From assembly GCA_030765185.1 (NCBI GenBank), contig JAVCDE010000015.1, positions 1 to 62,106 on the forward strand: 62,106 bases of DNA, written 5' to 3'. Positions 3,501 to 62,106 of the stretch are shown piece by piece. The stretch comes from Candidatus Aceula meridiana. GTDB lineage: Bacteria > Omnitrophota > Gorgyraeia > Zapsychrales > Aceulaceae. How positions within the stretch are numbered: position 1 is the stretch's first letter; every line of letters begins with the position of its first letter. Position numbers and translations under genes: made by a program. Below the pieces are notes generated by a model. That model was not told the origin of the DNA, made no database searches, and was given only the letters and a program-made list of their open reading frames with translations.

Positions 3501-4517
3501 TTACCTAATCTTTATAGGTGCCCCGTTATTTTTTATAGACTCTTGAATAGCAACTAATGCTCGAACAACATCGCCGGCTTTTTTTGCATCAGCCAAATCA
3601 GGAGATGTGTTGTTCTCAATACAATGAATAAAATATTGATCTTGTTTTTTAAGCGGCTCCCCTGTAGCTATCTTAGGAATTGTAATACTTCCCTCTCGCG
3701 ATAAAAGCTGAAACTCTCCATACGTCTGATAAAAAACCTCTGTTTTCTCGACGTGCTTATCATAAAGCTTAATAGGCCCGAGATTATCCAAGTCATCCCA
3801 GACAACCATTTTTTGCCCACCAACAACTGTAATTTGACGAACCTTGCGCGGATCTAGCCAACTGACGTGTACATTAACTAAAATATCATTAGGATATTCG
3901 AGCGTAGCAAAGGCCAAATCTTCTAAGGATGTTTTAAGGGCCTTTTGCCCGCGCGCTGAAACGCTAAGCGGACAAGCATCAAATAAATAATTAAAAATGG
4001 ATATGTCGTGAGGAGCTAAATCCCAAAGCGCATTAACATCATAACGAAAAGGCCCTAAGTTTGTTCTTTCGGAATGCGCATAATAAACATCCCCCAGCTC
4101 TCCGGAAGAAATATATTTCTTAAGATGCGCGATCCCTTCATTAAAAACAAAAATATGACCAACCATCAAAATCTTGTTTTGCTTTTCCGCCAAATTTTGA
4201 AGCTCCTCACACTCTTTAACAACAAGGCTTAGCGGTTTTTCGCAAAGGACATGTTTGCCGGCCAAAAGAGCATCTTTGACAATTTGATGATGTGTCACTG
4301 TTGGCGTTGCAACGCAAACTGCATCAACGTCTTGACTATCTAGAATATCCTGATAATTTTTTGTTACCTTAATGCCAGGATGCATGCCTTTGATTGCACT
4401 TAATCTATCTGCATCGGAATCAGCGCACATCAAGACATCTACATCAGGCATCTGATCAAAAACTCGAAGATGGTTTGGGCCCCAATGGCCGCATCCGACA
4501 ACACCTACAGAAACCAT
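3501..4517 (-). CDS. Gfo/Idh/MocA-family NAD-dependent sugar oxidoreductase (WbpB-like)
   Basis: N-terminal Rossmann VGVVGCGHWGPNH and conserved CEKPL motif. Adjacent to the WbpD-like acetyltransferase. Confidence 0.65.
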   Translation of the reverse strand: MVSVGVVGCGHWGPNHLRVFDQMPDVDVLMCADSDADRLSAIKGMHPGIKVTKNYQDILDSQDVDAVCVATPTVTHHQIVKDALLAGKHVLCEKPLSLVVKECEELQNLAEKQNKILMVGHIFVFNEGIAHLKKYISSGELGDVYYAHSERTNLGPFRYDVNALWDLAPHDISIFNYLFDACPLSVSARGQKALKTSLEDLAFATLEYPNDILVNVHVSWLDPRKVRQITVVGGQKMVVWDDLDNLGPIKLYDKHVEKTEVFYQTYGEFQLLSREGSITIPKIATGEPLKKQDQYFIHCIENNTSPDLADAKKAGDVVRALVAIQESIKNNGAPIKIR

Positions 4518-5321: not shown

Positions 5322-5609
5322 TTAAAATCCGGGAAACCCGGCCATGGCCTTCATTTTCTCGGCAGCAATCGCCTGAGACTTTAAAATAGCCTCATTGGCG
5401 CCTTTTAAAAATGCCTGTTCTAAGCTTTCTTTATTGTCCTTATTTAAAACATCAAAATCAAGTTCAATTGATTTAAACTTCTGCGTTCCATTGATAACAA
5501 TCTTAATTCCCGCAGGTGCATTTGTCTCAACTTCGGCTGCTTCCAAGTCGCGCTTGATTTGTTCAGCCTGTTTTTTCATCTGCATCAATTTCTTCATTTG
5601 GTCAAGCAT
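5322..5609 (-). CDS. ybaB: Nucleoid-associated protein YbaB/EbfC
   Basis: 95 aa. MKKLMQMKKQAEQIKRDLEAAEVE..GTQKFKSIELD..LEQAFLKGANEA is a typical YbaB/EbfC fold signature. Confidence 0.8.
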   Translation of the reverse strand: MLDQMKKLMQMKKQAEQIKRDLEAAEVETNAPAGIKIVINGTQKFKSIELDFDVLNKDNKESLEQAFLKGANEAILKSQAIAAEKMKAMAGFPGF

Positions 5610-41336: not shown

Positions 41337-43820
41337 TTAATCAGTTCCGACTTTTCGTCTATTAAAACTTGTGCTAAGTAAATCCAAAACCATGTCCGGG
41401 AAGGCTTTGACGCGGAAAACAACCCATATTTCACTTCCACTACTTTTTGTTTGACTGAAACTAACATCTGCCTCCCAACAATGCAAATCACGTGTGATAG
41501 TATATTGATGTTCTTCAAAATTACCGCCGTCAAGATTAAAACGCCCATAAACAGAAAATTTCCATTTTGGATTAATTCGATAAGACCATTGCGATGTAAG
41601 TTCATCATCGCTATCTCGATGATATCTCTTCCCAACGCCAAACGTCCATTTATCCTCTTCTTGACTTTTAATAAATATCTCTTGGTTCGAAGAAATAAGA
41701 TGCTCTTGATTCGCGCTATATTCTGTATCTGAGAAGAAAGTTAGCCAATCTGCCGGACGAAACTCAATATCTGACTTAACCGTATTAAAACTTCCAGAGC
41801 CGGGGTCTTCTTTAAGCAAAAAGTCACTCGTTAAAGAAACTAAAAGAAGGTCAACTGTTTTATCGTCCCTCTTTGTTTGAAAACGATTGTCCAGCGTAAA
41901 ATCAATCTTATGCGATCGCTGAATATCATCAATACCGGCATCAAATAAATCAATGTTAGTGTACGACAACGAAGGCTCATGTACATAGCTATAAGCAACC
42001 GTTGGCGTAATAATATGCCGTAGCCGATTAAAATCAATACCCCAAAAACTTCCCTTTGTATCAAGCGTTTTATAAAACTTCGTACTAACTTCAGCTCCTG
42101 TTTCAAAGATGGTGCGTGTTGTATTATATTTTGAAGGGCTTTTAGTTTTACTATAATATGTAGCCCTCTCTCCAACATAAGGAACCAAGTCAAAAATGCC
42201 GAGCCTAACCGGATAAGATATTCTATTTTTAGAATCAATGCGATGGGTATTCTTTCGAACCTCAGAAGGTGAAGCATCCGGATACGAAAGATTAGAATAA
42301 AGATTAGTGCTTTGAAAATAAAGATTTGTCTTGCCAACTTCTTGGCTTAGAAAATCATATCCAATTTGAGGTAATCTTTCAACGCTAGAAACAAAACGGT
42401 TAATGCGCTTATCGGTTCTAAAACTAAAAACCCCCTTATCAAAGCTTTTAGTAAACAAAAAATATGTCTCAGGGTTTGGATCCTTATCGTATTCTCGTTC
42501 AAAATAATCTTTTAAGAATTCGCTATCACTAAGCTTGTAGTACTGCCAAATTGCACGCGTCGTAGAATCAATCTTCCAATTATGACGCCACTCCGCCTTA
42601 AACCGTTCTCGCTCAATGGTCGGAGACGGTCGCTCTTCCCACCAACGTTTCGAAGTAATATTTCGCTCATTCATATAATAAAGCTTAACAAGGCCTTCAC
42701 CATAATTAGGAACTTTGTAAAAAGTATCTATTCCAGAAGCCACATCTTTCTTCTCTCTAAAATCAACACGAAGATTACCTTTAAAGTTCTCATTAAAGAA
42801 ATACCGCCAGGACGTCAACAAGAACATGCCCCATTCTTTGTCATAACCCGGAGTCAAAAGGAGCTTAGGCTTGCTGTCTTCCATCATTTTTGAATATTGA
42901 GGAAAATAAAAGATCGGCACCTTCCCAATCAAGAACGTAAGATTTTTGGCGACAATCTTATCTTTTGGATAAACTTCAATATTCTTAGCGTTAAGCTTAT
43001 AGTGCGGCTTGTCTAAATCACATGTTGTCATGTATCCTTGCTGCATTTCAATTTTGTTTTCACCCACTTTTTCAATTTTGCGCGCACCTCCATAATATGG
43101 TTCAGAAGTAATCTTTGCCTCCGAAAAAGATCCTGTCATAGTCTCAAAATTAAAGGTAAGTTCATCACCGCGAATTTTTCCTTGAGGGTTCGTTAAAACA
43201 ACATGTCCTTGCGCCACAGCAGTTTTTGCAAGATGAAAGTATTCTACGTGGTCGCATTCAAGCTTGACATCTTCTTTGGAAATAACAACATTCCCGTCAA
43301 TAATGGCCTTATTTTCATCTTGCAAGAATTCAACAGTATCTCCATCAATCTCAACAGGCTTAACAAAATCCTCTTCATTAATATCTTGATTTATTTCTTG
43401 GGCGGGAGTCTCAGCAGGAACCTCTTCCTTCTTGACAATAGGCTCAGGATCTTTTTCCTCAACAACAAGCTCAGATTTTTCTAAGGCAGACTCAAAGGGG
43501 TCCTTAGCCTCAGGCTCAAGGACAGGCTCTTCAACTTCTAAAATCTCTTCTTGTTGAAACTTTTTCTTCGAGGCAATGACTTCGGCCTCTAGATCTGCAG
43601 CGCTTTCTGATTCTATAATTGGAGCAGAATCTGAGACATCCTCAGATGCCTCTGCGTCAGGGCGGCCAGAGGGTCCTCCGGTATACTGGGCAAGGCCTAT
43701 CTTTGGAAAGACAAAATAGACTAGCAAAAAAGTAAAACTAAAGATGGCAAATAAGGGTTTATTTCGCACGAAACTTGATTTCCTCTTCAACCAGGGCCTG
43801 CGCTCCGATGATGCCGGCAT
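41337..43820 (-). CDS. lptD: LPS-assembly outer-membrane protein LptD (OstA)
   Basis: Signal/anchor segment and an acidic linker of about 100 aa. OstA-N jellyroll (VEIDGDTVEFLQDENKAIIDGNVVI..GDELTFNFETMTG), then a large beta-barrel rich in aromatic-terminated strands. The ATG at 43820 overlaps the ROK gene by 62 nt; an in-frame GTG at 43769 is an alternative start. Confidence 0.75.
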   Translation of the reverse strand: MPASSERRPWLKRKSSFVRNKPLFAIFSFTFLLVYFVFPKIGLAQYTGGPSGRPDAEASEDVSDSAPIIESESAADLEAEVIASKKKFQQEEILEVEEPVLEPEAKDPFESALEKSELVVEEKDPEPIVKKEEVPAETPAQEINQDINEEDFVKPVEIDGDTVEFLQDENKAIIDGNVVISKEDVKLECDHVEYFHLAKTAVAQGHVVLTNPQGKIRGDELTFNFETMTGSFSEAKITSEPYYGGARKIEKVGENKIEMQQGYMTTCDLDKPHYKLNAKNIEVYPKDKIVAKNLTFLIGKVPIFYFPQYSKMMEDSKPKLLLTPGYDKEWGMFLLTSWRYFFNENFKGNLRVDFREKKDVASGIDTFYKVPNYGEGLVKLYYMNERNITSKRWWEERPSPTIERERFKAEWRHNWKIDSTTRAIWQYYKLSDSEFLKDYFEREYDKDPNPETYFLFTKSFDKGVFSFRTDKRINRFVSSVERLPQIGYDFLSQEVGKTNLYFQSTNLYSNLSYPDASPSEVRKNTHRIDSKNRISYPVRLGIFDLVPYVGERATYYSKTKSPSKYNTTRTIFETGAEVSTKFYKTLDTKGSFWGIDFNRLRHIITPTVAYSYVHEPSLSYTNIDLFDAGIDDIQRSHKIDFTLDNRFQTKRDDKTVDLLLVSLTSDFLLKEDPGSGSFNTVKSDIEFRPADWLTFFSDTEYSANQEHLISSNQEIFIKSQEEDKWTFGVGKRYHRDSDDELTSQWSYRINPKWKFSVYGRFNLDGGNFEEHQYTITRDLHCWEADVSFSQTKSSGSEIWVVFRVKAFPDMVLDLLSTSFNRRKVGTD

Positions 43821-45016: not shown

Positions 45017-46039
45017 TTATTTTGATTTGTAGACTCCGAAGGCTGTCACACAATTTCGGCCGCGCTTCTTTGAGCGATACAATGCCCAATCTGCCTTGTC
45101 AATTAACTCCATGGAAGACTTTCCATCAGCCGGAAAGCATGAAATGCCAAGGCTTACGGTAACTTTTGCAGTTGTGTCATAGGCCTCAATAACAGCCTCC
45201 TCGATAGCCTGACGGATACGCTCGGCAACAAAAAATCCACCCTCGTTGTCTGTGTCTGGCAAGACAACCGAGAATTCTTCTCCGCCATAGCGCCCGGCAT
45301 AATCAATCTCACGAACATTTTCTTGAATCAAAAAACTTACAGCCTTTAAAATTTTGTCGCCAACGAGATGGCCATAATTATCATTGAAGCTTTTAAAACG
45401 ATCGACATCAATCATTAAAAAAGATAATGGGATTTTCTTAATAGTGGCACGCTGGAGCTCTTCCTCGAAACGCTCAAGAAGATACCGACGAGTGTGGATG
45501 CCTGTTAGACTATCTGTAATTGCAGCCTGCTCAATCTCCTGGTAAAGAATAATTCGCCTTAAAGCCAGCCCAAACTGCTGCGCAAGAATAATAAACTTAT
45601 CTTTGTCTTGCTCTCGCAATCCCTTAATAATAATATTTCCTAAAATCCGTTTTCGTCCTTGAAGAGGAAAAATAAAATAGTCTTTAGAATCAGGTATTTT
45701 TTTGCGTCGATCACCCTCGGCGTGAATAAGACGACAATCTTCAAAACTAACTTTCTCTTTAAGGGTTGCGCGAAAAACCTCAAAAGCTTCTTGCTCATAT
45801 GACTTTTTACTGATTTCTTTGGTAATGTCGTAAAGCGTAAAAATATCTGAAGCCTCCTGCTCAGCAAATTTCTTTTCTTCAGAAATTTTCTCCTTTTCTT
45901 GAGCAAGGCGGACAACATCCTCCTTCAAAACAGCTAAAGATTGCTTGTTGTCATTCTGAACCTGCTCTGTAATGTTTCGAGCAAAGTAAAACATAAAAAG
46001 AATAAAAACAACAATAAGAAGACTCATCAAAAGCAACAT
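45017..46039 (-). CDS. Diguanylate cyclase (TM + coiled-coil/sensor + GGDEF)
   Basis: LTGIHTRRY, MIDVDRFKSFND, the RYGGEEF active site, and an RxxD I-site (REID) five residues upstream. Confidence 0.8.
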   Translation of the reverse strand: MLLLMSLLIVVFILFMFYFARNITEQVQNDNKQSLAVLKEDVVRLAQEKEKISEEKKFAEQEASDIFTLYDITKEISKKSYEQEAFEVFRATLKEKVSFEDCRLIHAEGDRRKKIPDSKDYFIFPLQGRKRILGNIIIKGLREQDKDKFIILAQQFGLALRRIILYQEIEQAAITDSLTGIHTRRYLLERFEEELQRATIKKIPLSFLMIDVDRFKSFNDNYGHLVGDKILKAVSFLIQENVREIDYAGRYGGEEFSVVLPDTDNEGGFFVAERIRQAIEEAVIEAYDTTAKVTVSLGISCFPADGKSSMELIDKADWALYRSKKRGRNCVTAFGVYKSK

Positions 46040-47325
46040 ACGCGGTTTCGTCCTTTTCGTTTTGCTTGGTACATAGATTCATCAGCTTTTTGAATAAGCT
46101 CTTCCTTAATCTGAGCATCCGTTGGGAAACAAGCGATGCCGATCGAAACAGTAATATTTGTTTTTTCTCGGCGTAAAACGATTTTTTGCTCGGAAATAGT
46201 TTTTCTTAACGACTCGGCTAGCTCTTTAGCTTGCTCTTTTGAACAATCCGGCAAAAAGATAACAAATTCCTCTCCTCCATAACGGCAGACAATATTGCCA
46301 GGCTTATCAAACATTTTCAAAAGAATATCTCCTAAAGCTTTTAAAACAATGTCTCCAGCGATATGGCCGAACTTATCATTGTATTTCTTAAAATGATCAA
46401 GATCAATCATCAGAAGAGAAAGCTCTTGCTTACGGCGAAGCTGCCGAGGCAGTTCCTCACTCATGCGCTCTAGAAGAAAACGTCTTAGATGGAGACCCGT
46501 TAAGCCATCTTTCATCGCAAAATTTTGAATACGTTCATAAAGCTGCGCGTTTTCAATAGCCGCAGCTCCTAAATCTGCTATCGTCGATAAAAAACGTAAA
46601 TCTTCTGCTGAAAAACGGTCTTCCTGAGGGTTATCTAGGTGTAGAAGACCAAAAACACGCATTCCCACCATTAGAGGTGCAATCATAACTGAACGCCGTT
46701 GGCGATCCTTTTGCAATTCATCAATCTTCTCGATATCAAAACGAAAGTCACGATCTGAATCTGTGATAAGCAGAGGCTTCAGATTTTTAATAACCCAATG
46801 GTCAAATAGATCACCATTCTTAAATTTAATATTTATTTTTGACTCTATTCGCCTTGCTGCCATCATCTCTAAATCACTGGTCTTCGGATCTACAAGATAT
46901 AAGATAGTCGTTGTATCCCCTCGCCCGAATAAAGCCATAACCTCATCGGCGAGAATATCTGCAGCATTTTTACATGAAGAGCATTGGCTCAATTTTTCAG
47001 CAACAGCTTTAAGCTTGGTGTAGCCGCCGATTCTTTCGCGGAAAGAAGATAAAGCAACTTTTTCTTTCTCGATATCAAGAGACAAAAGATTTAGTTGTTC
47101 GCTATAATCTTCCTTCTGAAGATTGATATCCGTCTGAGAAAGAATTAATTGCTTGCGGAAAAAAAGAAGAACAAAGACAACAATAAGATTGGAAAAAACG
47201 ATGATAACAAAGAATTGGGAAGAAAACTTAAGGGCGTAGAAAAAAAATCCTACCAACAAAACCAACAAGATGGTAATAGGCAGGATATTCGAGTTAGATA
47301 ATAGTTTTTTCGGTTTCTTTATCAA
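46027..47325 (-). CDS. Diguanylate cyclase (2 TM + GAF + GGDEF)
   Basis: GAF-like region (SVMIAPLMVGMRVFGLLHLDN), LTGLHLRRF, MIDLDHFKKYND, RYGGEEF. No RxxD I-site. Confidence 0.8.
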   Translation of the reverse strand: MIKKPKKLLSNSNILPITILLVLLVGFFFYALKFSSQFFVIIVFSNLIVVFVLLFFRKQLILSQTDINLQKEDYSEQLNLLSLDIEKEKVALSSFRERIGGYTKLKAVAEKLSQCSSCKNAADILADEVMALFGRGDTTTILYLVDPKTSDLEMMAARRIESKINIKFKNGDLFDHWVIKNLKPLLITDSDRDFRFDIEKIDELQKDRQRRSVMIAPLMVGMRVFGLLHLDNPQEDRFSAEDLRFLSTIADLGAAAIENAQLYERIQNFAMKDGLTGLHLRRFLLERMSEELPRQLRRKQELSLLMIDLDHFKKYNDKFGHIAGDIVLKALGDILLKMFDKPGNIVCRYGGEEFVIFLPDCSKEQAKELAESLRKTISEQKIVLRREKTNITVSIGIACFPTDAQIKEELIQKADESMYQAKRKGRNRVCCF

Positions 47326-52511: not shown

Positions 52512-54449
52512 TTATTTAGTATCATCCTCAGCTTCAAAATCAGCGTCGATGACATCTTCTTTTTTAGAATCATTGCTCTTGCCTTGAGAAGTATCCCCAG
52601 GCTGCTCTTGCGGCTCAGCGCCAGGTTCACCCTCAGCCTGCTCACCAGCATTCCCTGCTGCTTGCTGAGAAGCTGTTGCCTTATACATTTCCTCGGCTAA
52701 CTTATGGCTTGCTTTCTGCAAAGATTCCATAACCGGTTTAATCTTTTCAGCATCATTGGTTTTAATGGCTTCTTTTAAAGCGCTTAATTCTTTTTCAATA
52801 TTTTCTTTATCCTCTTTTGAAACCTTATCGCCATATTCTTTTAAAGATTTTTCGGTGGCATAGACAAAGGTGTTGGCTTGATTTAAGATTTCGGCTTGCT
52901 CTTTTTTCTTTTTATCATCCTCGGAAAATTTTTCAGCTTCTTTGACCATTTTATCAATTTCCTCATCAGAAAGCTTAGTCGGTGCAGTAATCTTGATCGA
53001 CTGTTCTTTTCCGGTTGCTTTGTCTTTAGCAGAAACGTGAACGATGCCGTCTGAATCAATGTCAAAAGTAACTTCAACTTGCGGAATACCCCGCATTGCA
53101 GGCGGAATGCCGACAAGATCAAAACGCCCAAGCTCAGCATTGTCGCTAGACATCTGTCGTTCGCCCTGCAAAACACGGATGGTAACCGCTGTTTGATTAT
53201 CATCCGCTGTCGAGAAAATTTGGCTTTTCTTTGTTGGAATAGTTGTGTTTCTCTCAATTAATTTTGTGAAAACACCGCCTAATGTTTCGATTCCTAAAGA
53301 AAGTGGCGTAACATCTAAAAGAAGAACTTCTTTAGCGTCACCTTTAATAATTGAGGCTTGAACCGCTGCGCCTAAAGCTACACATTCCATAGGATCAATG
53401 CCGCGTTCAATTTTTTGTCCAACCTCTTTTTCCACAAATCCTTGAACAATAGGCATTCGAGTTGGGCCGCCAACTAGGATAACTTTATCAATTTTAATAT
53501 CTTCACCAAGCTTTGTTCCTGCATCTTTTAAAGCCTGAGTAATTGGTCCACGGCATTTATCAACAATCGGAGAAACAAGCTCTTCAAGCTTAGATCGCTC
53601 AACTTTTAAATTAAGATGCTTTGGCCCTGATTGATCTGCTGTAATAAAAGGAAGGTTAACATCTGTTGAGATCGTCGATGAGAGCTCAACTTTTGCCTTT
53701 TCTGCGGCTTCGCGTAAACGCTGAAATGCCATTTTATCATTTCTGACATCAATGCCGCTTTCCTTCTTGAATTCTGAACAAATATGGTCGATCAAAAGAT
53801 TGTCCATATCCGTGCCACCTAAATTATTATCACCGCTAGTGGACAATACTTCAAAAGTAGAAGCTTTGTGAGTTTCGTCCCATCCCATTTCTAGAATAGT
53901 AACGTCTAAGGTTCCACCGCCAAAGTCAAAAACCATAATCTTTTGTTCTTTTCCGGCTTTATCTAATCCATAGGCTAAGCAGGCCGAAGTCGGTTCGTTA
54001 ATAATGCGCAAAACTTTTAGGCCTGCAATTTCTCCTGCATCTTTAGTTGCCTGCCTTTGATTATCATTAAAATAAGCTGGCACAGTGATGACAGCTTCTT
54101 CAACCGTGTCTCCTAAATATTTCTCAGCATCAGCTTTAATTTTTTGCAAAATAAAAGCGCTGATTTGCTGCGGGGTAAATTCTTTTCCGGCTGCCGAAAA
54201 CTTTTCACTTGTTCCCATTTTCCTTTTAGCGGCATAAATCGTGCCCTGTGGATTAACTGCAGCTTGTCGTCGAGCAGGCTCGCCTACTAAACGATTTCCG
54301 TCTTTGTCAAATGCTACAAATGACGGAAAAGCTTTTCCGGATGCAACGCCTGCACCTTCTGCTGATGGGATAATATTAGGGCGCCCGCCTTCCATAACAG
54401 CGGCAGCTGAATTTGATGTTCCTAGATCGATTCCGATAACTCTTGCCAT
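52512..54449 (-). CDS. dnaK: Molecular chaperone DnaK (Hsp70)
   Basis: [30 protein letters not shown], and an acidic C-terminal tail. Start at MARVIGID. Confidence 0.95.
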
Positions 54450-54486
54450 TTTTTCCTCCTTAAAGCTTCTCAAGCTTTTTTTAAAA

Positions 54487-55017
54487 TTATTCTTTTTTCT
54501 TGGCGACTTTCACTTTATTGGTACGAACAATCCTATCACCAATCATATACCCTTTTTGAAACTCTTCTAAAACTGTTCCTTCTTCAACTTTGTCATCCTC
54601 CTCTTGCATCAAGACCTCATGGCAATTTGGGTCAAACATTTTTCCCTTTGCTTCAATAGGCTTTACATCATTCTTTTTAAGTAAATCATAAACATGCGCC
54701 ATGACCATCTCAATGCCTTTTAAAAAAGCATCATAGTCTTCATGATTCGCACGAGCGGCTTCAATCGAACGCTCAAGGTCATCAAGAATATTTAAAAACT
54801 CGACGATAAGTTCTTGATTCGCGTATCTGACAAACTCTCCTCTTTCGCGTTCCATGCGCTTGCGGGCATTATCAAATTCTGCAAAAAGACGGATATATTT
54901 ATCTTTATATTCGGCCAGCTCATCAATAATTTTTTGATGCTCTTCTTTAGATAAACAGACATCATTATTTATTTCTTCTTGTTCTTTATCTTTTCGTTTA
55001 TCTTTTTTTAGATTCAT
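54487..55017 (-). CDS. grpE: Nucleotide exchange factor GrpE
   Basis: [37 protein letters not shown]. Confidence 0.9.
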
Positions 55018-55019
55018 TT

Positions 55020-55754
55020 TTAAATCATCCTATCTACGAGTTGAGATAAATATTCCAAAGTCGATACAGCCTTATCGTAATTCATGCGGGTTGGACCTAA
55101 AAGCGCTAAGCGCCCCGATGGACCCCCTTTGCGGCCAAACCGGGAAACCACGAGCGAACAATCTTCCACTCCGGGCAATCCCACTTCTCGCCCGATAAAA
55201 ATCTTAGCCCTTTCGTCAATCTCTCGATCAATAAGCTTTAAAAGCTCCTTCTTCTGTTCCAAAACCTCAAGCATATAGCGAATTTTCTGAAAATTATAAA
55301 ACTCCGGATAACCGGCAACAAAACTAACTCCACGACAAAAAATAAGGTCGCGTCCATCCAAAGAAATAATGCTAGGGTAATGTGTTTCCTGGGCTAAAAT
55401 CTCAGACGTCCTTTCTAAGAGCCCTTCAAGCTCTCCCATCCCTTGGGCATACTCTGCCTGGATACGATCTTTCTCAGTACTCAAAAGATTAATTTCATTC
55501 ATCAGCTTATCAACATAATAACGATATCCCTCTTGGGTCGGTACACGCCCAGCAGAGGTGTGAGGATGGGTCAGATAGCCATCATCTTCGAGCTCTGCTA
55601 ATACATTGCGGATGGTGGCTGAACTTAGGCCACAAAGACACTCAGAAGCAATTTGACTTGAGCCAACAGGCACAACATGGCAAATATATTGCTCTACCAC
55701 ATAGGTTAAAACCTGCTCTTTTCTTTTCTGAGGATCTAGGCGTTTTGTTGTCAT
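55020..55754 (-). CDS. hrcA: Heat-inducible transcription repressor HrcA (short form)
   Basis: N-terminal wHTH (PVGSSQIA..SSATIRNVLAELEDDGYLTHPHTSAGRVPT) and C-terminal LALLGPTRMNYDKAV. Only 244 aa. Preceded by a CIRCE operator. Confidence 0.8.
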   Translation of the reverse strand: MTTKRLDPQKRKEQVLTYVVEQYICHVVPVGSSQIASECLCGLSSATIRNVLAELEDDGYLTHPHTSAGRVPTQEGYRYYVDKLMNEINLLSTEKDRIQAEYAQGMGELEGLLERTSEILAQETHYPSIISLDGRDLIFCRGVSFVAGYPEFYNFQKIRYMLEVLEQKKELLKLIDREIDERAKIFIGREVGLPGVEDCSLVVSRFGRKGGPSGRLALLGPTRMNYDKAVSTLEYLSQLVDRMI

Positions 55755-55807
55755 ATTAAATTCTTTGAGAGTTAAAATTCTTTGCGTTTAATAATGTTAC
55801 AGAAATA

Positions 55808-55834
55808 TTAGCACTCTTACATCAAGAATGCTAA
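55808..55834 (-). promoter_or_regulatory. CIRCE operator (HrcA binding site)
   Basis: TTAGCACTC-TTACATCAA-GAATGCTAA versus consensus TTAGCACTC-N9-GAGTGCTAA (one mismatch), immediately downstream of the -10 box. Confidence 0.85.
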
Positions 55835-55840
55835 TTTAGG

Positions 55841-55868
55841 ATTATAGCAAATTATCTTTTCTTGTCAA
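55841..55868 (-). promoter_or_regulatory. Sigma-70 promoter of the hrcA-grpE-dnaK-dnaJ operon
   Basis: Minus strand reads TTGACA-16 nt-TATAAT (both hexamers consensus; TGC precedes the -10). Confidence 0.75.
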
Positions 55869-55908
55869 TAATGTTTTTCGCGTGCTTTTCGCGTTGAAAA
55901 ATGGGGAA

Positions 55909-56523
55909 TTAAATCTGCTCCTCAAGCTTTGCAATGAGGCTATTAACTTCTCTGGCAATTTTATCCGGCAAAAGTTTAGTGTCTTCCATCTCTCTTTTAA
56001 GAGATTTAAGCGTTCCAATAAAACGCTTAATGTTGGTTTGTTTTTTTCTTTGCCAGGCTTCTTCGGGATCGTATTCTTCACGCTCGCGCATAAGAGTTGT
56101 TAAATCTTTTCTGACTTCTTGAGAATTCTTTCCCTTTACAAAAATATCTTCTCTAAGTTTTTGATAATCTTGGCGGTCTAAATTCTTTTCCTTCGCTCGA
56201 CGTAAAACATCAACTGCTTCATAGCTAGGAACTTTAGCAGGGTCGGTATCTTTTAGATAATCTTGCTGAAGATATGCAGGTTCTTCTTTTTCTAAAAAAT
56301 AATAAGAACGTAAAAGCTTTAATGACGTAGCCTTGCGGATTCCGATTTCTTTGGTGACATAAGTATCAAACTGCTGATATCCCCATTCTTTGTAATGCTT
56401 GTCTCGCCAAATCGAATAAAGAACACGTCCGAGTTCAATCCAGGAATTCTTAAAATCTTTGGCTGTTGTAATTGCTAAATCACGCAGAGATGATGGCTCT
56501 GCCATGGTTAATAAATCGTTCAT
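55909..56523 (-). CDS. Hypothetical protein, possible HTH DNA-binding N-terminal domain
   Basis: 204 aa with SD AGGGAG. N-terminal WIELGRVLYSIWRDKHYKEWGYQQFDTYVTKEIGIRKATSLKLLRSY looks HTH-like. Charged helical C-terminus. No family recognised. Confidence 0.4.
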   Translation of the reverse strand: MNDLLTMAEPSSLRDLAITTAKDFKNSWIELGRVLYSIWRDKHYKEWGYQQFDTYVTKEIGIRKATSLKLLRSYYFLEKEEPAYLQQDYLKDTDPAKVPSYEAVDVLRRAKEKNLDRQDYQKLREDIFVKGKNSQEVRKDLTTLMREREEYDPEEAWQRKKQTNIKRFIGTLKSLKREMEDTKLLPDKIAREVNSLIAKLEEQI

Positions 56524-56742: not shown

Positions 56743-56772
56743 TTGGCAAAGTACAGAATTACATGCTATATT
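56743..56772 (+). promoter_or_regulatory. Putative promoter of the riboswitch transcript
   Basis: TTGGCA-18 nt-TATATT with extended -10 TGC (TGCTATATT), about 15 nt upstream of the aptamer P1. Confidence 0.4.
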
Positions 56773-56788
56773 TTAAATGTAGAATAAG

Positions 56789-56908
56789 ATGATCGCTCTT
56801 TCATAAAGTTGAAAGGTAAACTACTCCGAAAGGGTAGGGCACAAAGCCGTGAGCCTTAACTTCTTAAGTTCTCTCAAGAAGAAAGGTTGTCTGGTTACCG
56901 TAGATCAT
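56789..56908 (+). promoter_or_regulatory. c-di-GMP-I (GEMM-I) riboswitch aptamer
   Basis: AUGAUC..GAAAGGUAAACUACUCCGAAAGGGUAGGGCACAAAGCCGUGAGCC..GGUUGUCUGGUUACCGUAGAUCAU parallels V. cholerae Vc2 (GGGCAAACC-GAAA hairpin-GGGACGCAAAGCC..GGGGUUACCG). P1 is AUGAUC/GAUCAU. Confidence 0.85.
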
Positions 56909-56928
56909 ACATTTAAATGATTTCGTAA

Positions 56929-56968
56929 AAAAGCCCTTTGAAATTTCTTTCGAAGGGCTTTTTTTTAT
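56929..56968 (+). terminator. Intrinsic terminator (riboswitch expression platform)
   Basis: AAGCCCTTTGAAA-TTTC-TTTCGAAGGGCTT (13 bp including one G-U) followed by T8, 20 nt after the aptamer and just before the SD of the small ORF. Confidence 0.8.
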
Positions 56969-56984: not shown

Positions 56985-57224
56985 ATGAGAAATTGCTCTT
57001 TAACCAAAATCTTTGCCGTTATGGTGATTGTCTTTACAATGTGCACCATCGCGGAAGCAGGCCAAGGCGCCACAAGGGTCTTTAAGTTTTCTGTGAGAAT
57101 CCCAGAAACCATTCACAACACAAGAAGAGGCCTACGAACAGAAGCTAAAGGGCAAGGATTTATTGCAACGAAAGAAATTCGAGACAGCAGAATTGTAATG
57201 GTGCAGACAACGGTTGCAAAATAA
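56985..57224 (+). CDS. 79-aa secreted basic peptide, function unknown (riboswitch-controlled)
   Basis: AGGAGGG lies 5 nt upstream of the ATG at 56985. Sec signal IFAVMVIVFTMCTIAEA|GQG. The mature part, about 54 aa, is R/K-rich. No family recognised. Confidence 0.45.
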   Translation: MRNCSLTKIFAVMVIVFTMCTIAEAGQGATRVFKFSVRIPETIHNTRRGLRTEAKGQGFIATKEIRDSRIVMVQTTVAK

Positions 57225-57270
57225 AATAGCTTTAAAAAGCAGAACTCTCTTTTTCATTTAAGAACTCTTT

Positions 57271-57306
57271 AAGCCAGGAGTACCTCTCCTGGCTTATTCT
57301 TTTTTC
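57271..57306 (+). terminator. Intrinsic terminator after the small ORF (overlaps the 3' end of the convergent OMP gene)
   Basis: AAGCCAGGAG-TACCT-CTCCTGGCTT followed by ATTCTTTTTT. Confidence 0.7.
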
Positions 57307-60300
57307 TTTACCGGAATGTGGAAAATATAAGTTGTCCCTTCTTGGACATCAATTTTATTAGTGAGCTTTATTAGAGGAAGGTACTCCATAGGGATTGAGT
57401 TGACATCAATAGCAATCTTATGCTCTCCCGCTTCAACATTATCAAAAGAATAAGAGCCCTCAAAATCTGTAACGGCCTCTTTCCCCTCAAGGGTAATGTG
57501 GACACCGTGAATAAACTCATCTCCAGAATCAGGTTTTTTGCTTTGATTCTTGTCATAATAAACTACACCATAAACTCCAGAACTCGTAGAAAGGCCAAAA
57601 TCGACCTTAACAATCTTGTGCGGAACAATTTTAACTTTGGCATAAAGTGGCGTCGTAAAAATATAGCCCTTAGGAACACTGTCAAAATCCATTCCGATTT
57701 GAACCTTCTTACCGCTAATCTTTATTAGATAGCGGCCGTTTTCATCGGTTGTGGTCTCCTTCTTTCCTACCTTTAATGTAATTCCTGGAATGCCTTTTTC
57801 ATCAGAATCTTGCACTCCGTTCATATTCATATCTTTAAAGACGGTGCCTCCAACATGGCCTTGCGGATTCCACCTAACAGGTAGCTCCCAGGACGTGCGC
57901 GCACCTAGCCTAATGTCTGCTTCAAAATAATTTGCAATATCTGAATCTTCAGGCCAGGTCTTACGGGCGGTAGCATCTAGATATATATCAAAATCAGAAT
58001 TCGGCCGATACGAAAGTCCCGCGGTTACAGCAGTTGAATCCTCCCCCGCTAAGAAACTGAAAGAACTTTCTGCTTCTTGTTCGTTGCGATAAGAAAGGTC
58101 TATATTCCCGAAAATGCTATCTGTAAGGTCCTTCCTATAACTTAAGCCCGTGGTCATTGCGCGAGGCTGGCTTCGGTTACCGCTTAAAATCTCATCAACA
58201 AAATAATAATCGTAATCAAGGTAATAGGAAAGCCAGTCAAGAACCGGAACCCGAATGCCTCCACCAAGCCCAATGCGGTCATATTCTGACGAAGGTGAAT
58301 AAGAATATCGACTTCTCTGGTAGGATTGGCGCAAGGTAACAGAGCCCATTCTCTCTGTTGAAAGAAAATCAAAATTCTTAGTTAAATAATTATAAATTCT
58401 AAAATCGCGATATGGCGAAATAAGGCCTGCAGTATCCAACCAATAAACATCTGTATTCCAGGTGGCAGATTGTTCTTCAAAAGGTTTTCGTAAAGATACA
58501 CTAAGATCATAGTTATAGGCATAAGGATTCTCAGGATTAACAGTGAGCCTATCTTTATAAACATTAAAGGAAGAATCTAAGCTAAAACTTTCAGGATGCC
58601 AGAAAAACGCCATAATTCCGCCAACTTCACCTTGACCCGAAGGATTCGAAACAACGGTTGTATAATCTTTTTCAATATCCCTAAAATCTAAAGAAAGGTC
58701 CATTTCAGAATTAAGAGGAAAATCAGCATGGGCTGTCCGGGCAAAATTTTCTTCGTCATGGGCTATCTCAGCAGATAGGTCTAACTCACCAAATTTCTGA
58801 AAAGTCTGAAAAGACATATTTTGATCAGCAAGATAGCTTTCTCGGTCGCTTCCCCAGCCTTCGGCATAATTAAAGTTATACTGATGGTCTCCGTATGGAA
58901 AAAAGCGTATTTGCCCACCCGTTATAAAGGATTGATCCTTAGATATAATTTCAGGTGATACAATCCCATAAGTAGCACGGTCTTGACCATTGATATAGGA
59001 ATACTCTATCGCATCATCAAACAATCTTTGTTCAAAAAGAATACCTCGGAAATATTTTCCGGACAAAGTCAAAGGCGAAAATGTTTTTCGGGCATCAAAG
59101 CCTCGAATGTTAAAATTAGAAATCGGCCCAATCTGCCCATCGATAAGACCTACAGAATACCCTGTTGCTACTGTTTTCTCTGCTTTTTTCTCAAACGTTA
59201 CAGAAGAATCAAGATTTCCATAAGGAGTTTCTCCTGCAAGTAGCATTCTTTGTGTAAAATTAAGTGAAGTTCTTTTTACTTCGTCTAGGTCTTGGTCTGA
59301 ATAGTAAGTGCTCCAGTCGCTTGAGTAATCAAAGCGAAACGGTTCAACTTCCTCTTGCCAGACATCTTTATCAACTCCGAACGGTCTCGATATAGGAATG
59401 GTCACTTGAACATTAAACGACCAACGGCCATGATCTTCCCAAATTAAAAGGGTTGTCCTTCCTCTTTTGTTGTCTGTAGAAATTGCAATACGGTCGCGAT
59501 CAATTCTCTCTAAATTAATAAAGCCAGGAGTCACGATAAGATACCTTTCAATATTCTTGCCTTCAAAAATTAAAGTTTTTCCCATTTCGATTTCTACTGT
59601 TGGCTTATCTGAATAATTCCATAGCTCACCATTTAAATAAATTGTGTCAGGGTCATAGACGGGAACATCAAGCCCCTCCTGCGTTATTGTTTCTACAGTC
59701 CGATTAGTATCAGACTGGCTACTAGACTCTTCTGCTATTTCTAGAGGATCATCTAGTCTTCCCTCTTCTGCCGCGTCTGCCATGCCTCTAGGCTCCTTCA
59801 AAGGCTGTTCTGGCTGTTCCCCCATGCCTTTAGAATTTTCGAGCGACTGCTGGCCTCTTGTTGTTTTTGAAACAGTAGGTTCGGATTGCGACTGGGCAGC
59901 TCTTTGGTCAGACTGATTATCGTTTTGTCTAGGTGTAAAATTCTGGGTAGGTGCTTGTTGAGCTTTCTCAGTCACTATTTCTTCCAAGGTAGTTGTTTCA
60001 CCCTCAGACTCAATAAAATCAGGAATATTTTCTGACTTCTCTCCTGCCATATGCTCTAAGAAATCGAGAGCTGATTCCATAGCTTGTTTTTTTGGATTTA
60101 TATCTTGGGAGGCGACAGGCTCAAGAGGTGCTGATAAATCTTGGCTAATCTCAAGTTCTTTTTCGGACTCAAGCTCTTGCTCGACCTCCTCAGGAAGAAC
60201 CGCAGCTTCAGAGGTTAAAGTTTTTTCATATTGAAAAAGTGCTTGATTAATAAACTGTTCGCGTTTGATGCCAACTGAAGAATCTTCTACCGGAAGGAAA

Positions 60301-60662
60301 GATGGAAAATATTCTTGCTGACTTTGCCCCTTATCTTTTAGAATGTCATCAGCTAATAATTCTCCAGAAGCTTTCTTTTTAAGATCTCTTACCTTTTCTT
60401 CATACTCGATAACTCCTATGCAGCCGTCTTGAAGTCGTTTAATTGTATTTAAAAAATGGAGGGAATCTTTTGCGTTAGGATTTACAATCAACGCTTCTTT
60501 AAAAAAAGCAACTGCGTCAGTGTAGTTGCCTTGCGTTAAAGCTTCCATGCCTTTTTTTTCAAAAAAACTATACGGGATAGGCTCTGTCGCATACGAAGAG
60601 CCAATAAGAAGAGAACCTAAAAGGAGTAAAACTCCTATAGTAAGAAGTGTTTTTTTCTGCAT
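57294..60662 (-). CDS. 1122-aa outer-membrane protein: TPR-like + acidic linker + pilus-N (secretin-N-like) domain + large beta-barrel + two CarboxypepD_reg/SdrD-B-like domains
   Basis: Signal peptide (LLLLGSLLIGSSYA). TPR-like GNYTDAVAFFKEALIVNPN. About 250 aa of E/D/Q/S-rich sequence. VEIEMGKTLIFEGKNIERYLIVTPGFINLERIDRDRIAISTDNKRGRTTLLIWEDHGRWSFNVQV fits the pilus-formation N-terminal domain pattern. About 560 aa of amphipathic Y/F/W-terminated strands follow. C-terminal GGTVFKDMNMNGVQDSDEKGIPGITLKV..TDENGRYLI and GVVYYDKN..GVHITLEG..TDFEGSYSFDNVEAGEHKI are beta-sandwich repeats. Confidence 0.6.
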   Translation of the reverse strand: MQKKTLLTIGVLLLLGSLLIGSSYATEPIPYSFFEKKGMEALTQGNYTDAVAFFKEALIVNPNAKDSLHFLNTIKRLQDGCIGVIEYEEKVRDLKKKASGELLADDILKDKGQSQQEYFPSFLPVEDSSVGIKREQFINQALFQYEKTLTSEAAVLPEEVEQELESEKELEISQDLSAPLEPVASQDINPKKQAMESALDFLEHMAGEKSENIPDFIESEGETTTLEEIVTEKAQQAPTQNFTPRQNDNQSDQRAAQSQSEPTVSKTTRGQQSLENSKGMGEQPEQPLKEPRGMADAAEEGRLDDPLEIAEESSSQSDTNRTVETITQEGLDVPVYDPDTIYLNGELWNYSDKPTVEIEMGKTLIFEGKNIERYLIVTPGFINLERIDRDRIAISTDNKRGRTTLLIWEDHGRWSFNVQVTIPISRPFGVDKDVWQEEVEPFRFDYSSDWSTYYSDQDLDEVKRTSLNFTQRMLLAGETPYGNLDSSVTFEKKAEKTVATGYSVGLIDGQIGPISNFNIRGFDARKTFSPLTLSGKYFRGILFEQRLFDDAIEYSYINGQDRATYGIVSPEIISKDQSFITGGQIRFFPYGDHQYNFNYAEGWGSDRESYLADQNMSFQTFQKFGELDLSAEIAHDEENFARTAHADFPLNSEMDLSLDFRDIEKDYTTVVSNPSGQGEVGGIMAFFWHPESFSLDSSFNVYKDRLTVNPENPYAYNYDLSVSLRKPFEEQSATWNTDVYWLDTAGLISPYRDFRIYNYLTKNFDFLSTERMGSVTLRQSYQRSRYSYSPSSEYDRIGLGGGIRVPVLDWLSYYLDYDYYFVDEILSGNRSQPRAMTTGLSYRKDLTDSIFGNIDLSYRNEQEAESSFSFLAGEDSTAVTAGLSYRPNSDFDIYLDATARKTWPEDSDIANYFEADIRLGARTSWELPVRWNPQGHVGGTVFKDMNMNGVQDSDEKGIPGITLKVGKKETTTDENGRYLIKISGKKVQIGMDFDSVPKGYIFTTPLYAKVKIVPHKIVKVDFGLSTSSGVYGVVYYDKNQSKKPDSGDEFIHGVHITLEGKEAVTDFEGSYSFDNVEAGEHKIAIDVNSIPMEYLPLIKLTNKIDVQEGTTYIFHIPVKKKE

Positions 60663-60680
60663 AGTATAACGTTTTGCCCA

Positions 60681-61490
60681 TCAGTCTCGTACCTGAAGGA
60701 TTTTAAAAGTAGAGTTTTTTGTTTTCTCAAAATCGACTTCCTCGACAAAAGAATCTCCCTCGCCTAATTCAAAAGTTAAAATTAGCGTATAATTCCCACC
60801 GGGAATATTATTAGCAATATCAACAAAAAATGGTGCACTCTCTCCGGGCGGAAGATAGAATGGCTCTATTTCGCCACGGTCTGCAACTATCCCCTCATCA
60901 TCCATAATATAGAAAATTCCTCGAGGTATCAATATGATTTGACTTTTATTTTCAATCGTTCCCAAAAGCTGATTTCCAGCTATAGCGATATCGAGAACTT
61001 TCGCGTCTTTTGAAGCTCCATTCTTTTCTAAAAAGAATAAACATCCTACCCTTGTCACAATCGTGACACCTGTCGCTGTCTTTTTGTCGCGAGAGTTGTC
61101 TTCAAAAAATAAAACACCATAGTAGCCATCTTCCGCATCTTCGGGAAGACGCGCAGAATAAGAAACAGCTTTTTTCCCGTAAGGACCTAACGTAATCTCT
61201 TGCGGCATAAAATTAACTAAATTTGAACAAGACCGGTTGCTCGTTCCCGGAGAAAGAAATTTTTTATTACCATCGAAAGGAGGCACATAAAGAAAATCTT
61301 GCCAATAGGCCTTTACTGATATTTCTTGATCTTTAGTGTTATGGATTATCACCTCTCCGGTAGCTGTCTCTCCGGGATCCAGGGAAAGGTTGACTTTGCC
61401 TTGTTGTAAAAGCATTTGCGAAAAAGCCGGTGTGCAAAAACTTCCAAAGCATAAGCCCAAGAGAAAAATCAATATAAGAATTTTCTTCAT
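60681..61490 (-). CDS. Secreted two-domain Ig-like protein (candidate periplasmic chaperone/assembly factor)
   Basis: Sec signal LLGLCFGSFCTPAFSQ. The beta-rich pattern LSLDPGETATGEVIIHNTKDQEISVKAYWQDF and ITLGPYGKKAVSYSARLPEDAEDGYYGVLFFE is reminiscent of PapD-like/DUF916-type Ig folds. 18 nt upstream of the OMP gene. Confidence 0.45.
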   Translation of the reverse strand: MKKILILIFLLGLCFGSFCTPAFSQMLLQQGKVNLSLDPGETATGEVIIHNTKDQEISVKAYWQDFLYVPPFDGNKKFLSPGTSNRSCSNLVNFMPQEITLGPYGKKAVSYSARLPEDAEDGYYGVLFFEDNSRDKKTATGVTIVTRVGCLFFLEKNGASKDAKVLDIAIAGNQLLGTIENKSQIILIPRGIFYIMDDEGIVADRGEIEPFYLPPGESAPFFVDIANNIPGGNYTLILTFELGEGDSFVEEVDFEKTKNSTFKILQVRD

Positions 61491-61516
61491 GATGTAAAAC
61501 CTTTCCTTTTTCTTCC

Positions 61517-61566
61517 AAAAAGGATTTTAAGGGAAAGGTTAAACCTCTCCCTTAAAATCCTTTTTT
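61517..61566 (-). terminator. Strong hairpin terminator/attenuator between the subunit gene and the assembly genes
   Basis: A 22-bp inverted repeat (AAAAAGGATTTTAAGGGAGAGG / CCTTTCCCTTAAAATCCTTTTT on the minus strand). Its single irregular pair is G-U on the minus strand but A-C on the plus strand. A U-run follows the GC core. Confidence 0.7.
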
Positions 61567-61618
61567 GAATTTTGTCTTGTGTCTCTTTTATTTTTGTATC
61601 GCTTAGCCTTTATTTAAA

Positions 61619-62106
61619 TTACGGCAATGTTGCTGAAACAGTCATTGTACCTTCATAGCTGCCAGGTGCATCAGAATTAGTAAATACTTCAGCGGTTGGC
61701 GGCATCGTACCTTCTTCACCGGTGTTGATTCCGAAGTACATCCTCAAGAAACCACCAGTAAGTTCACTTGGCTGGATAGTTTCATTGACAGTTCCAAAAA
61801 CTTCCTTTGGATGAGCAACAAGTGGTGTTTCTGTCTGAGCTCCTGTCGGACCGGTAACGGAAACAAAAGTAGCAGAACCTTTAACGCCCAAACCGTGAGT
61901 AGTTCCGCCATTAGGATTGTTTCCTTGTTTAAAAAATACTGATGTTGTTGGGTTACCTGTACCGCCTGTTGGCGCAACGTCAACAGCATAATACTCTGTT
62001 GCCATCCAGATTTCATTCACTGTGTCGTAATTCATGTTATACGCCAACGAATTTCCTACCGGCGTCCAGGTTGTTCCAACAACCCTGTTTGCATCAATTG
62101 AAACCC
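61619..62106 (-). CDS. Secreted beta-rich G/T-rich structural subunit candidate (5' end outside the window)
   Basis: The frame stays open upstream of the TTG at 62047 to the window edge (..VSIDANRVVGTTWTPVGNSLAYNMNYD..), so the N-terminus is missing. The C-terminal APGSYEGTMTVSATLP resembles the terminal strand of SCPU/DUF4402/CU-type fimbrial subunits. Confidence 0.5.
   Translation of the reverse strand, partial: VSIDANRVVGTTWTPVGNSLAYNMNYDTVNEIWMATEYYAVDVAPTGGTGNPTTSVFFKQGNNPNGGTTHGLGVKGSATFVSVTGPTGAQTETPLVAHPKEVFGTVNETIQPSELTGGFLRMYFGINTGEEGTMPPTAEVFTNSDAPGSYEGTMTVSATLP

Follow-up and report, generated by a model that had tools for sequence, protein, structure and literature searches.

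The window analysed here is the whole 62,106-base contig JAVCDE010000015.1 of Candidatus Aceula meridiana, and the system in question lies at its end, where three minus-strand genes form a compact unit (57294–62106) on which a riboswitch unit for cyclic di-GMP (c-di-GMP) converges. The first gene encodes SUB, a secreted G/T-rich subunit of approximately 203 aa; its C-terminal 161 aa are present (61619–62106, minus strand), in a frame that is still open where the window ends. A hairpin with a perfect 23-bp stem (61517–61565, minus strand) separates it from CHAP (60681–61490, minus strand), a periplasmic protein of 269 aa with a signal peptide, two Ig-like domains, and no membrane anchor. CHAP lies upstream of OM, an outer-membrane protein of 1122 aa (57294–60662, minus strand), at a distance of 18 nt. 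The original prediction, made from the letters of the window, described this unit as an usher-like envelope locus with the gene order subunit, attenuator, Ig protein, and outer-membrane barrel. All features described there are present at the positions given, among them the open reading frames (ORFs) of CHAP and OM, the order holds in the window, and the overall reading is supported by the predicted folds of CHAP and OM and by synteny in approximately 60 species. It missed a fourth conserved gene, BIG, which lies upstream of SUB and outside the window.

A locus scan with one genome per species found 72 loci—numbered with the prefix L in the following—nearly all of them in metagenome-assembled genomes (MAGs) of Omnitrophota; some records are labelled 'uncultured Planctomycetales'. 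Mapping of ORFs based on hidden Markov models (HMMs) reveals the same-strand order BIG (approximately 455 aa), SUB (approximately 205–220 aa), CHAP (approximately 268 aa), and OM (approximately 900–1100 aa) in approximately 60 loci, each of a different species, and SUB is sometimes accompanied by extra paralogues. The gene order is hence kept in related genomes, where the original prediction had proposed to look for it. Variants of this layout also occur. In an Omnitrophota MAG, L007 (4628–14475; the same as L063) features a BIG-like gene followed by three CHAP-like genes (268–328 aa) that alternate with weak SUB-like genes, and no OM gene is in view. L076 (4871–11312) comes from the same MAG as L045, where it is the second copy; its BIG, CHAP, and OM are broken into many short ORFs, while the small ORF and the aptamer described below are intact. 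Either this locus is a paralogue in decay, or the contig contains frameshift errors.

The structure of CHAP was predicted with AlphaFold2 (AF2) from an alignment of 56 homologues, with a predicted local distance difference test (pLDDT) of 94.2 and a predicted template-modelling score (pTM) of 0.84. The model features two all-β, Ig-like domains, in line with the two Ig-type sandwiches originally proposed, and a loop of 15 residues (131–146) of lower confidence that precedes the invariant strand R147-V-G-C-L-F-F-L-E155. In a Foldseek comparison with the PDB, the first match is the Enterococcus faecium WxLIP (9i1y; E 1.2e-13, template-modelling score, TM, 0.46), and the top matches also include 9i25, in which WxLIP is bound to a long WxL protein. 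These are followed by PapD-type chaperones: CfaA (E 5e-10, TM on target 0.64) and then SafB, FimC, Caf1M, CsuC, and PapD with E about 1e-8 (up to 1e-7) and TM of 0.52–0.6. The best sequence-profile match of CHAP in the PDB is the fimbrial chaperone EcpB, at a marginal E of 0.039 and over an F1–G1-like region, and one of the more than 100 CHAP homologues is named PapD by the Joint Genome Institute. In Pfam, the window CHAP yields sub-threshold Ig-type matches only (WxLIP_PGBD, E 0.0013); within the family, matches below the cut-off occur to WxLIP_PGBD in 25 of the 56 members and to WxLIP_HBD in 2. The C-terminus, '...KNSTFKILQVRD', contains no hydrophobic segment and no membrane helix. Distant relatives of CHAP (25–29% identity, 302–321 aa) occur in pairs in L078 (95–7032) and L079 (5761–12753), which belong to a Patescibacteria MAG and a MAG labelled Gammaproteobacteria. 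Each of these relatives carries a C-terminal membrane helix, as WxLIP does, and they adjoin T/S/G-rich proteins of 365–390 aa that end in '..YTGT[AV]ILIATPTY' or '..VLYIVVPSY'; a membrane protein of 765–781 aa with a CarboxypepD_reg domain is also present. The Omnitrophota operon seems to have a monoderm counterpart in these two clusters.

OM was modelled with AF2 from 27 homologues. The protein consists of a signal peptide, TPR-like helices (31–112), a disordered acidic linker (112–337), a pilus-N β-domain of 80 aa (339–421), a barrel (443–926), and two C-terminal SdrD-B-like β-sandwiches (934–1122). The barrel, with a pLDDT of approximately 90, agrees with the original prediction in kind and not in length, since it spans approximately 485 aa instead of about 560; its strand count, judged by DSSP of the model, is 26 between residues 443 and 926. 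Every one of the 13 best Foldseek matches of OM in the PDB is an usher, either FimD or PapC. Full-length ushers occupy the top 12 places with E from 2e-21 to 5.5e-14 over approximately 800 columns, and usher translocation domains alone give E from 5e-11 to 4e-9 and TM of 0.46–0.51. TonB-dependent receptors, porins, AlgE, and MtrB appear at E ≥ 1e-8; a confident match to a TonB-dependent receptor or a polysaccharide porin was not found, and such barrels rank below all ushers, the best whole ushers leading them by 10 or more orders of magnitude in E. As judged by the model, the usher likeness of OM rests mainly on the succession of an N-domain, a barrel, and two C-terminal sandwiches in usher order.

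The sequence of the window OM is recognised by Pfam as TPR, a weak pilus-N, and two SdrD_B/CarboxypepD_reg domains. The resemblance of the N-domain to pilus-N, pointed out in the original prediction, is real at the level of the family: the window protein scores 14.2 bits against PF13629 (T2SS-T3SS_pil_N), below the cut-off of 23 bits, and 26 of the 27 OM homologues match the model, with a best E of 4.9e-8. This region thereby resembles the N-terminal part of Tad/Flp secretins (CpaC/RcpA). Unlike in Tad secretins, a monomeric β-barrel follows the pilus-N domain and no secretin domain is present; in Pfam, the 27 OM homologues match no Secretin model and no TonB_dep_Rec, Plug, AlgE, BcsC, or PgaA-type barrel. 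A barrel-only profile retrieved 26 further homologues, all from Omnitrophota; a first search, whose candidates were swamped by low-complexity and SdrD words, had given 4 relatives only. The linker (approximately 112–337; window 59650–60330) is acidic, rich in Q, E, and S, and the most variable part of the family, and it is approximately 95 aa longer than in the closest relatives (1122 versus approximately 1027 aa for the whole protein). An 11-residue loop between two barrel strands carries the sequence S-F-L-A-G-E-D-S (869–876; window 58035–58058), which is invariant or nearly so across the 27 homologues at 30–55% identity and is a candidate functional site, for instance a gate or a client contact.

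The N-terminus of SUB, which had been proposed to lie off the window, comprises 42 residues including the signal peptide. It is supplied by L001, a sister contig of 1.7 kb that encodes a complete SUB of 203 aa, 96% identical to the window fragment, along with a CHAP identical to the 269-aa protein of the window. The window spans its contig from end to end and cannot be extended, and the closest longer relative, L080, adds nothing upstream. Directly upstream of SUB on L001 lies the end of another gene, whose product finishes with EGTMTISATLP. The SUB family comprises 213 clusters at 50% identity and features an invariant motif D..G-x-Y-x-G-T-L-T-I-T-A-T. The C-terminus is fixed at 11 residues past the motif Tyr in 76 of 86 representatives, with a Gly 14 residues from the end, and the mature N-terminus shows alternating hydrophobics (F-x-[VLI]-[ST]-A-x-[VI]-P-x-A). 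A fixed C-terminus is expected where the terminal carboxylate sits in the cleft of a chaperone, as in Pap and Fim. SUB has no Pfam or NCBIfam match: 86 family members at E ≤ 0.1 give no pilin, PapD, usher, or WxL model, and sequence and profile searches of the PDB return only weak, probably spurious matches to lytic polysaccharide monooxygenases. A match to the WxL domain (PF13731) is likewise absent from the scanned SUB, BIG, and mini-protein sequences at E ≤ 5. For SUB and the mini-protein described below, a reading as lipoproteins was dropped by eye: a Cys is located near the cleavage site without a lipobox.

BIG (approximately 455 aa) consists of three homologous domains of approximately 140 aa each (hhalign probability 95–99%) and lacks an N-terminal extension; profile–profile comparisons with hhalign reveal no significant relation of BIG to CHAP or to SUB. 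In the PDB, sequence and profile searches with BIG and with OM returned no match. The hairpin between SUB and CHAP, predicted as an attenuator and confirmed as a stable RNA fold, has a free energy of −40.5 kcal/mol and a z of −6.8 versus shuffles. It is a candidate for a partial terminator or attenuator that sets the ratio of subunit to machinery. A stable RNA structure is found at this place in approximately half of the related loci, and in the other half the genes nearly abut.

The convergent unit on the plus strand starts with a promoter-like site, TTGGCA-18-TATATT with TG (56743–56772; consensus scan only), and a c-di-GMP-I (GEMM-I) riboswitch aptamer (56805–56902), which scores 59.7 bits against Rfam RF01051 at a gathering score of 35. 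An intrinsic-terminator-type hairpin of 17 bp with U8 (56927–56966), recognised from sequence and fold, lies between the aptamer and the Shine-Dalgarno sequence and represents the expression platform. The small ORF that follows (56985–57224) encodes a secreted mini-protein of 79 aa, approximately 55 aa when mature; its listed start is 56967, and AAGGAGG, a strong Shine-Dalgarno sequence, precedes an ATG at 56985, the probable start. Between the two convergent units, an 11-bp GC-rich hairpin with a T-run on the plus strand (57270–57296; terminator scan and sequence) is the terminator of the small-ORF transcript and overlaps the stop codon of OM. The layout of aptamer, terminator hairpin, and Shine-Dalgarno sequence is also found in L002, L006, L009, L013, and L014, and Rfam detects c-di-GMP-I before the small ORF in these five and in L003, L005, L017, and L018. 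In L020, the element (5458–5558) is the variant c-di-GMP-I-GGC, RF03167 rather than RF01051, at 61.5 bits; approximately 330 nt, which include two terminator-like hairpins, separate it from the small ORF.

A covariance model built from ten aptamers was searched in the 59 species-level loci with at least 450 nt downstream of OM. The aptamer is present in 56 of them, always upstream of the small ORF and on the same strand, and the search found no aptamer upstream of BIG. Nearly every locus has a small convergent ORF, called at 70–120 aa, next to the end of OM; 58 orthologues directly adjoin OM in this way. The riboswitch had been described as a neighbour converging on the locus: it does converge, and beyond being a neighbour it belongs to the conserved make-up of the locus, which makes the proposed link between c-di-GMP and this surface locus stronger than originally thought. 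L042, L048, and L058 feature a complete operon and 1.2–4 kb of downstream sequence without small ORF and aptamer; L058 carries three extra SUB paralogues upstream of BIG. Downstream of a single OM gene, L043 has two c-di-GMP-I aptamers of the same orientation (4194–4284 and 5478–5570), and the second one, approximately 1.3 kb further on, may control another gene. In minimum free energy folds of 11 leaders, the aptamer and the terminator both always form; the antiterminator pairings seen by eye in these leaders are short and not conserved, and the folds point to neither ON nor OFF. The unit resembles the GEMM-I riboswitches that precede genes for adhesins, pili, and flagella by its canonical RF01051 aptamer, its terminator-type platform, and an envelope or surface protein as predicted target. 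Unlike in those cases, only the mini-protein would be controlled, and the assembly operon is otherwise free of riboswitches.

Members of the mini-protein family feature a signal peptide, a conserved start of the mature chain with the pattern [ST]-x-x-[YF]-x-[LIV]-S-V-T-I-P, a central part of variable sequence, and a conserved C-terminus R-[ND]-N-x-x-[VI]-x-[LV]-x-[TS]-[IV]-V-x-[PK] that ends at the stop codon; the small ORF of the window has no Pfam or NCBIfam match. The N-terminus of the family is similar to that of SUB, with an hhalign E of 7e-11 with signal peptides and of 3.3e-4 without them (reversed control 0.18), and this similarity is limited to approximately 14 residues past the signal peptide.

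Next to the locus, the window carries hrcA–grpE–dnaK and a conserved protein of 203–204 aa of unknown function (52512–56523; the protein at 55909–56523). The same neighbourhood is found in L006 (18290–20813), and macro-synteny is therefore kept between the window and the species of L006, whose operon proteins are approximately 50–55% identical. Two adjacent GGDEF genes (45017–46039 and 46027–47325), one of them with a GAF sensor domain, are present 10 kb from the riboswitch, as had been predicted, and are candidate sources of the c-di-GMP signal. In addition, the window encodes an LptD-like protein (41337–43820). Together with the two GGDEF genes, this characterises the host as a diderm with c-di-GMP signalling.

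In our reading, the locus probably encodes a divergent fibre or adhesin system of the chaperone-usher kind that is modulated by c-di-GMP. SUB as the major subunit and BIG would be exported by Sec, and BIG—with three tandem domains of a putative Ig type—is probably a tip or adhesin component, a place assigned to it because it lacks an N-terminal extension. CHAP would capture both clients in the periplasm. Its flexible loop together with the invariant strand R-V-G-C-L-F-F-L-E may complete the β-sandwich of the client, as in PapD-type chaperones and WxLIP; in the latter, a loop is predicted to turn into a strand and thereby complete the sandwich of WxL (PMC10599100). The CHAP–client complexes would then dock on the periplasmic domains of OM, where the pilus-N domain takes the place of the usher N-terminal domain (NTD) and the two C-terminal β-sandwiches take the places of the usher C-terminal domains CTD1 and CTD2. 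From there, the clients would be threaded or assembled through the OM barrel into a surface fibre or adhesin layer with SUB as the repeating unit. The alternating hydrophobics of the SUB N-terminal strand and the fixed SUB C-terminus are consistent with a polymer formed by donor-strand exchange between subunits whose Ig fold is incomplete. The mini-protein, predicted to combine a SUB-like N-terminal strand with a terminal β-hairpin and no subunit body, would most likely act as a c-di-GMP-gated chain terminator, anchor, or cap by analogy to PapH or FimI. The second messenger would thus set the length or the retention of the fibre by the supply of mini-protein, leaving the machinery genes untouched.

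This proposal draws on the likeness to chaperone-usher pili such as type 1/Fim, P/Pap, class 5 CFA/I, archaic Csu, and Caf1. As in these systems, the gene for a two-Ig periplasmic protein immediately precedes that of a large outer-membrane barrel, genes for secreted β-rich subunits lie upstream in the same operon, and the subunit C-terminus is fixed in position with alternating hydrophobics. OM also has its N-domain before the barrel and its two β-sandwiches after it, as ushers do. Several observations weigh against it. None of the components passes sequence-model membership: no member of the BIG, SUB, CHAP, and OM families reaches the Usher, PapC_N, PapC_C, PapD_N, PapD_C, or Fimbrial models, with no PapD_N (PF00345) or PapD_C (PF02753) match in the 56 CHAP members and no Usher (PF00577), PapC_N, or PapC_C match in the 27 OM homologues, both at E ≤ 0.1. 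The original prediction had already seen no resemblance to FimD/PapC, PapD, or known pilins, and indeed no Pfam or NCBIfam model for any of these is reached. The profile of the OM barrel finds nothing in the PDB at E ≤ 10, and the modelled barrel, taken by itself, resembles ushers only modestly better than it does other large barrels. Unlike ushers, which feature 24 strands and a plug between strands 6 and 7, OM has 26 predicted strands. No loop between its strands exceeds 15 aa, and hence no usher-type plug insertion is evident, although a plug from other parts of the protein is possible. Through its homologues, its N-domain is assigned to the Tad-type pilus-N family PF13629 and not to the usher NTD of PapC_N, it is preceded by N-terminal TPR and a disordered linker of 100–220 aa, and at the C-terminus the two domains resemble SdrD-B and carry a D-x-N-x-N-G motif. 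The OM barrel is at most a putative homologue of the usher barrel. Further differences from chaperone-usher pili are the large first gene BIG with its three homologous domains and the host phylum Omnitrophota. The best structural match of CHAP is WxLIP, a scaffold for non-polymeric surface complexes, the fold of SUB is a conjecture from its sequence, and the attenuator hairpin is not universal.

The CHAP match to WxLIP supports a different explanation, namely that the locus encodes a diderm version of the WxL/WxLIP complex that does not polymerise: CHAP would stay stoichiometrically bound to SUB and BIG, OM would export or anchor the assembly, and the product would be an adhesin or a coat similar to an S-layer. 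WxLIP, alone and WxL-bound, tops the structural matches of CHAP (E 1e-13), the weak Pfam matches of the family are to its two domains, PGBD and HBD in that order, and one Ig-pair protein with a small and a large client mirrors the commonest WxL cluster (DUF916–DUF3324) of Firmicutes (PMC10599100). In addition, the Patescibacteria-type relatives of CHAP combine a C-terminal membrane helix with neighbouring T/S-rich proteins ending '..YTGTAILIATPTY'. The Omnitrophota CHAP, on the other hand, has no such helix, and its clients differ from those of WxL clusters: they contain no WxL domain, and SUB has no W-x-L motifs. The host is diderm, the locus includes a c-di-GMP riboswitch unit, and the obligate partner is an usher-like barrel protein of approximately 1000 aa, to which nothing in WxL clusters is comparable. 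The hairpin after the subunit gene in approximately half of the loci also suggests an excess of subunit, as for fibres. Taken together, a non-polymeric complex appears rather unlikely. Still less support remains for OM as a large porin, an uptake channel, or a polysaccharide export channel with SUB, BIG, and CHAP as accessory binding proteins and a generic usher likeness. For barrel-only comparisons, the E-values of ushers are better by only a few orders than those of TonB receptors, Occ porins, AlgE, and MtrB, the 26 strands come without a plug insertion, and N-terminal TPR matches exist in Pfam. An N-terminal TPR recalls BcsC, PgaA, and PelB-type exporters of c-di-GMP-controlled polysaccharides. 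In OM, however, it is a single TPR pair that is followed by a disordered linker, none of the receptor or exporter barrels named above is matched by the OM family, and no glycosyltransferase or polysaccharide genes are located among the called neighbours of the two long-contig loci inspected. Since the obligate partner moreover has a PapD/WxLIP fold and full-length ushers lead the OM matches, a channel of this type is highly improbable.

Within the fibre model, the role of the mini-protein allows for alternatives of its own: an initiator or primer that activates the usher, a competitive inhibitor of CHAP or of the subunit groove, or an independent peptide that shares a Sec or sorting motif with SUB. 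The short stretch of similarity to SUB, the small size of the mature protein, and leader folds that leave the direction of the riboswitch open are compatible with any of these. The shared motif, however, is as far from the point of signal-peptide cleavage as it is in SUB, and in 56 of 59 loci, deeply diverged from one another, the gene keeps its place at the 3' end of OM. The latter points to a direct functional tie to the machinery. We regard these other roles as possible at best and prefer a terminator, anchor, or cap. PapH and FimI, whose structures are among the CHAP matches as chaperone complexes (2j2z and 7b0w), are the closest parallel: with the N-terminal strand of a subunit and no full acceptor, the mini-protein could end or anchor a chain. 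PapH and FimI, however, each have a full-size pilin fold, and their genes belong to the operon, whereas the mini-protein is approximately 55 aa long when mature, encoded convergently, and controlled by a riboswitch.

Most descriptions of chaperone-usher pili come from Proteobacteria, with a few other phyla besides. Within the library searched, the literature yielded no description of this system in Omnitrophota and none of a chaperone-usher system tied to a c-di-GMP riboswitch. The resemblance of CHAP to both WxLIP and PapD-type chaperones suggests that the WxL complexes of monoderms and the pili of diderms may be linked by evolution; neither chaperones nor ushers are mentioned in the WxLIP paper (PMC10599100). 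As a more speculative and rather doubtful extension, the Omnitrophota pathway, phylum-wide and unseen by sequence models, might be a structural intermediate between WxL/WxLIP complexes and chaperone-usher pili—with a WxLIP-like chaperone, an usher-like barrel with a Tad-type N-domain, and a fibre that is capped or anchored by a donor-strand 'mini-subunit' gated by a c-di-GMP riboswitch. The four families also mark a gap in annotation: SUB with its 213 clusters, CHAP with more than 100 homologues, OM, and BIG are abundant orphan families without a Pfam or NCBIfam model. The near-constant pairing of the locus with a riboswitch-driven, donor-strand-like protein of 55 aa suggests that a second messenger may control the fibre after its assembly. 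If the fold-level counterpart holds, the reach of chaperone-usher systems would extend to approximately 60 species of Omnitrophota, a phylum of uncultured and very small bacteria, and the locus would provide a candidate attachment organelle for their cells.

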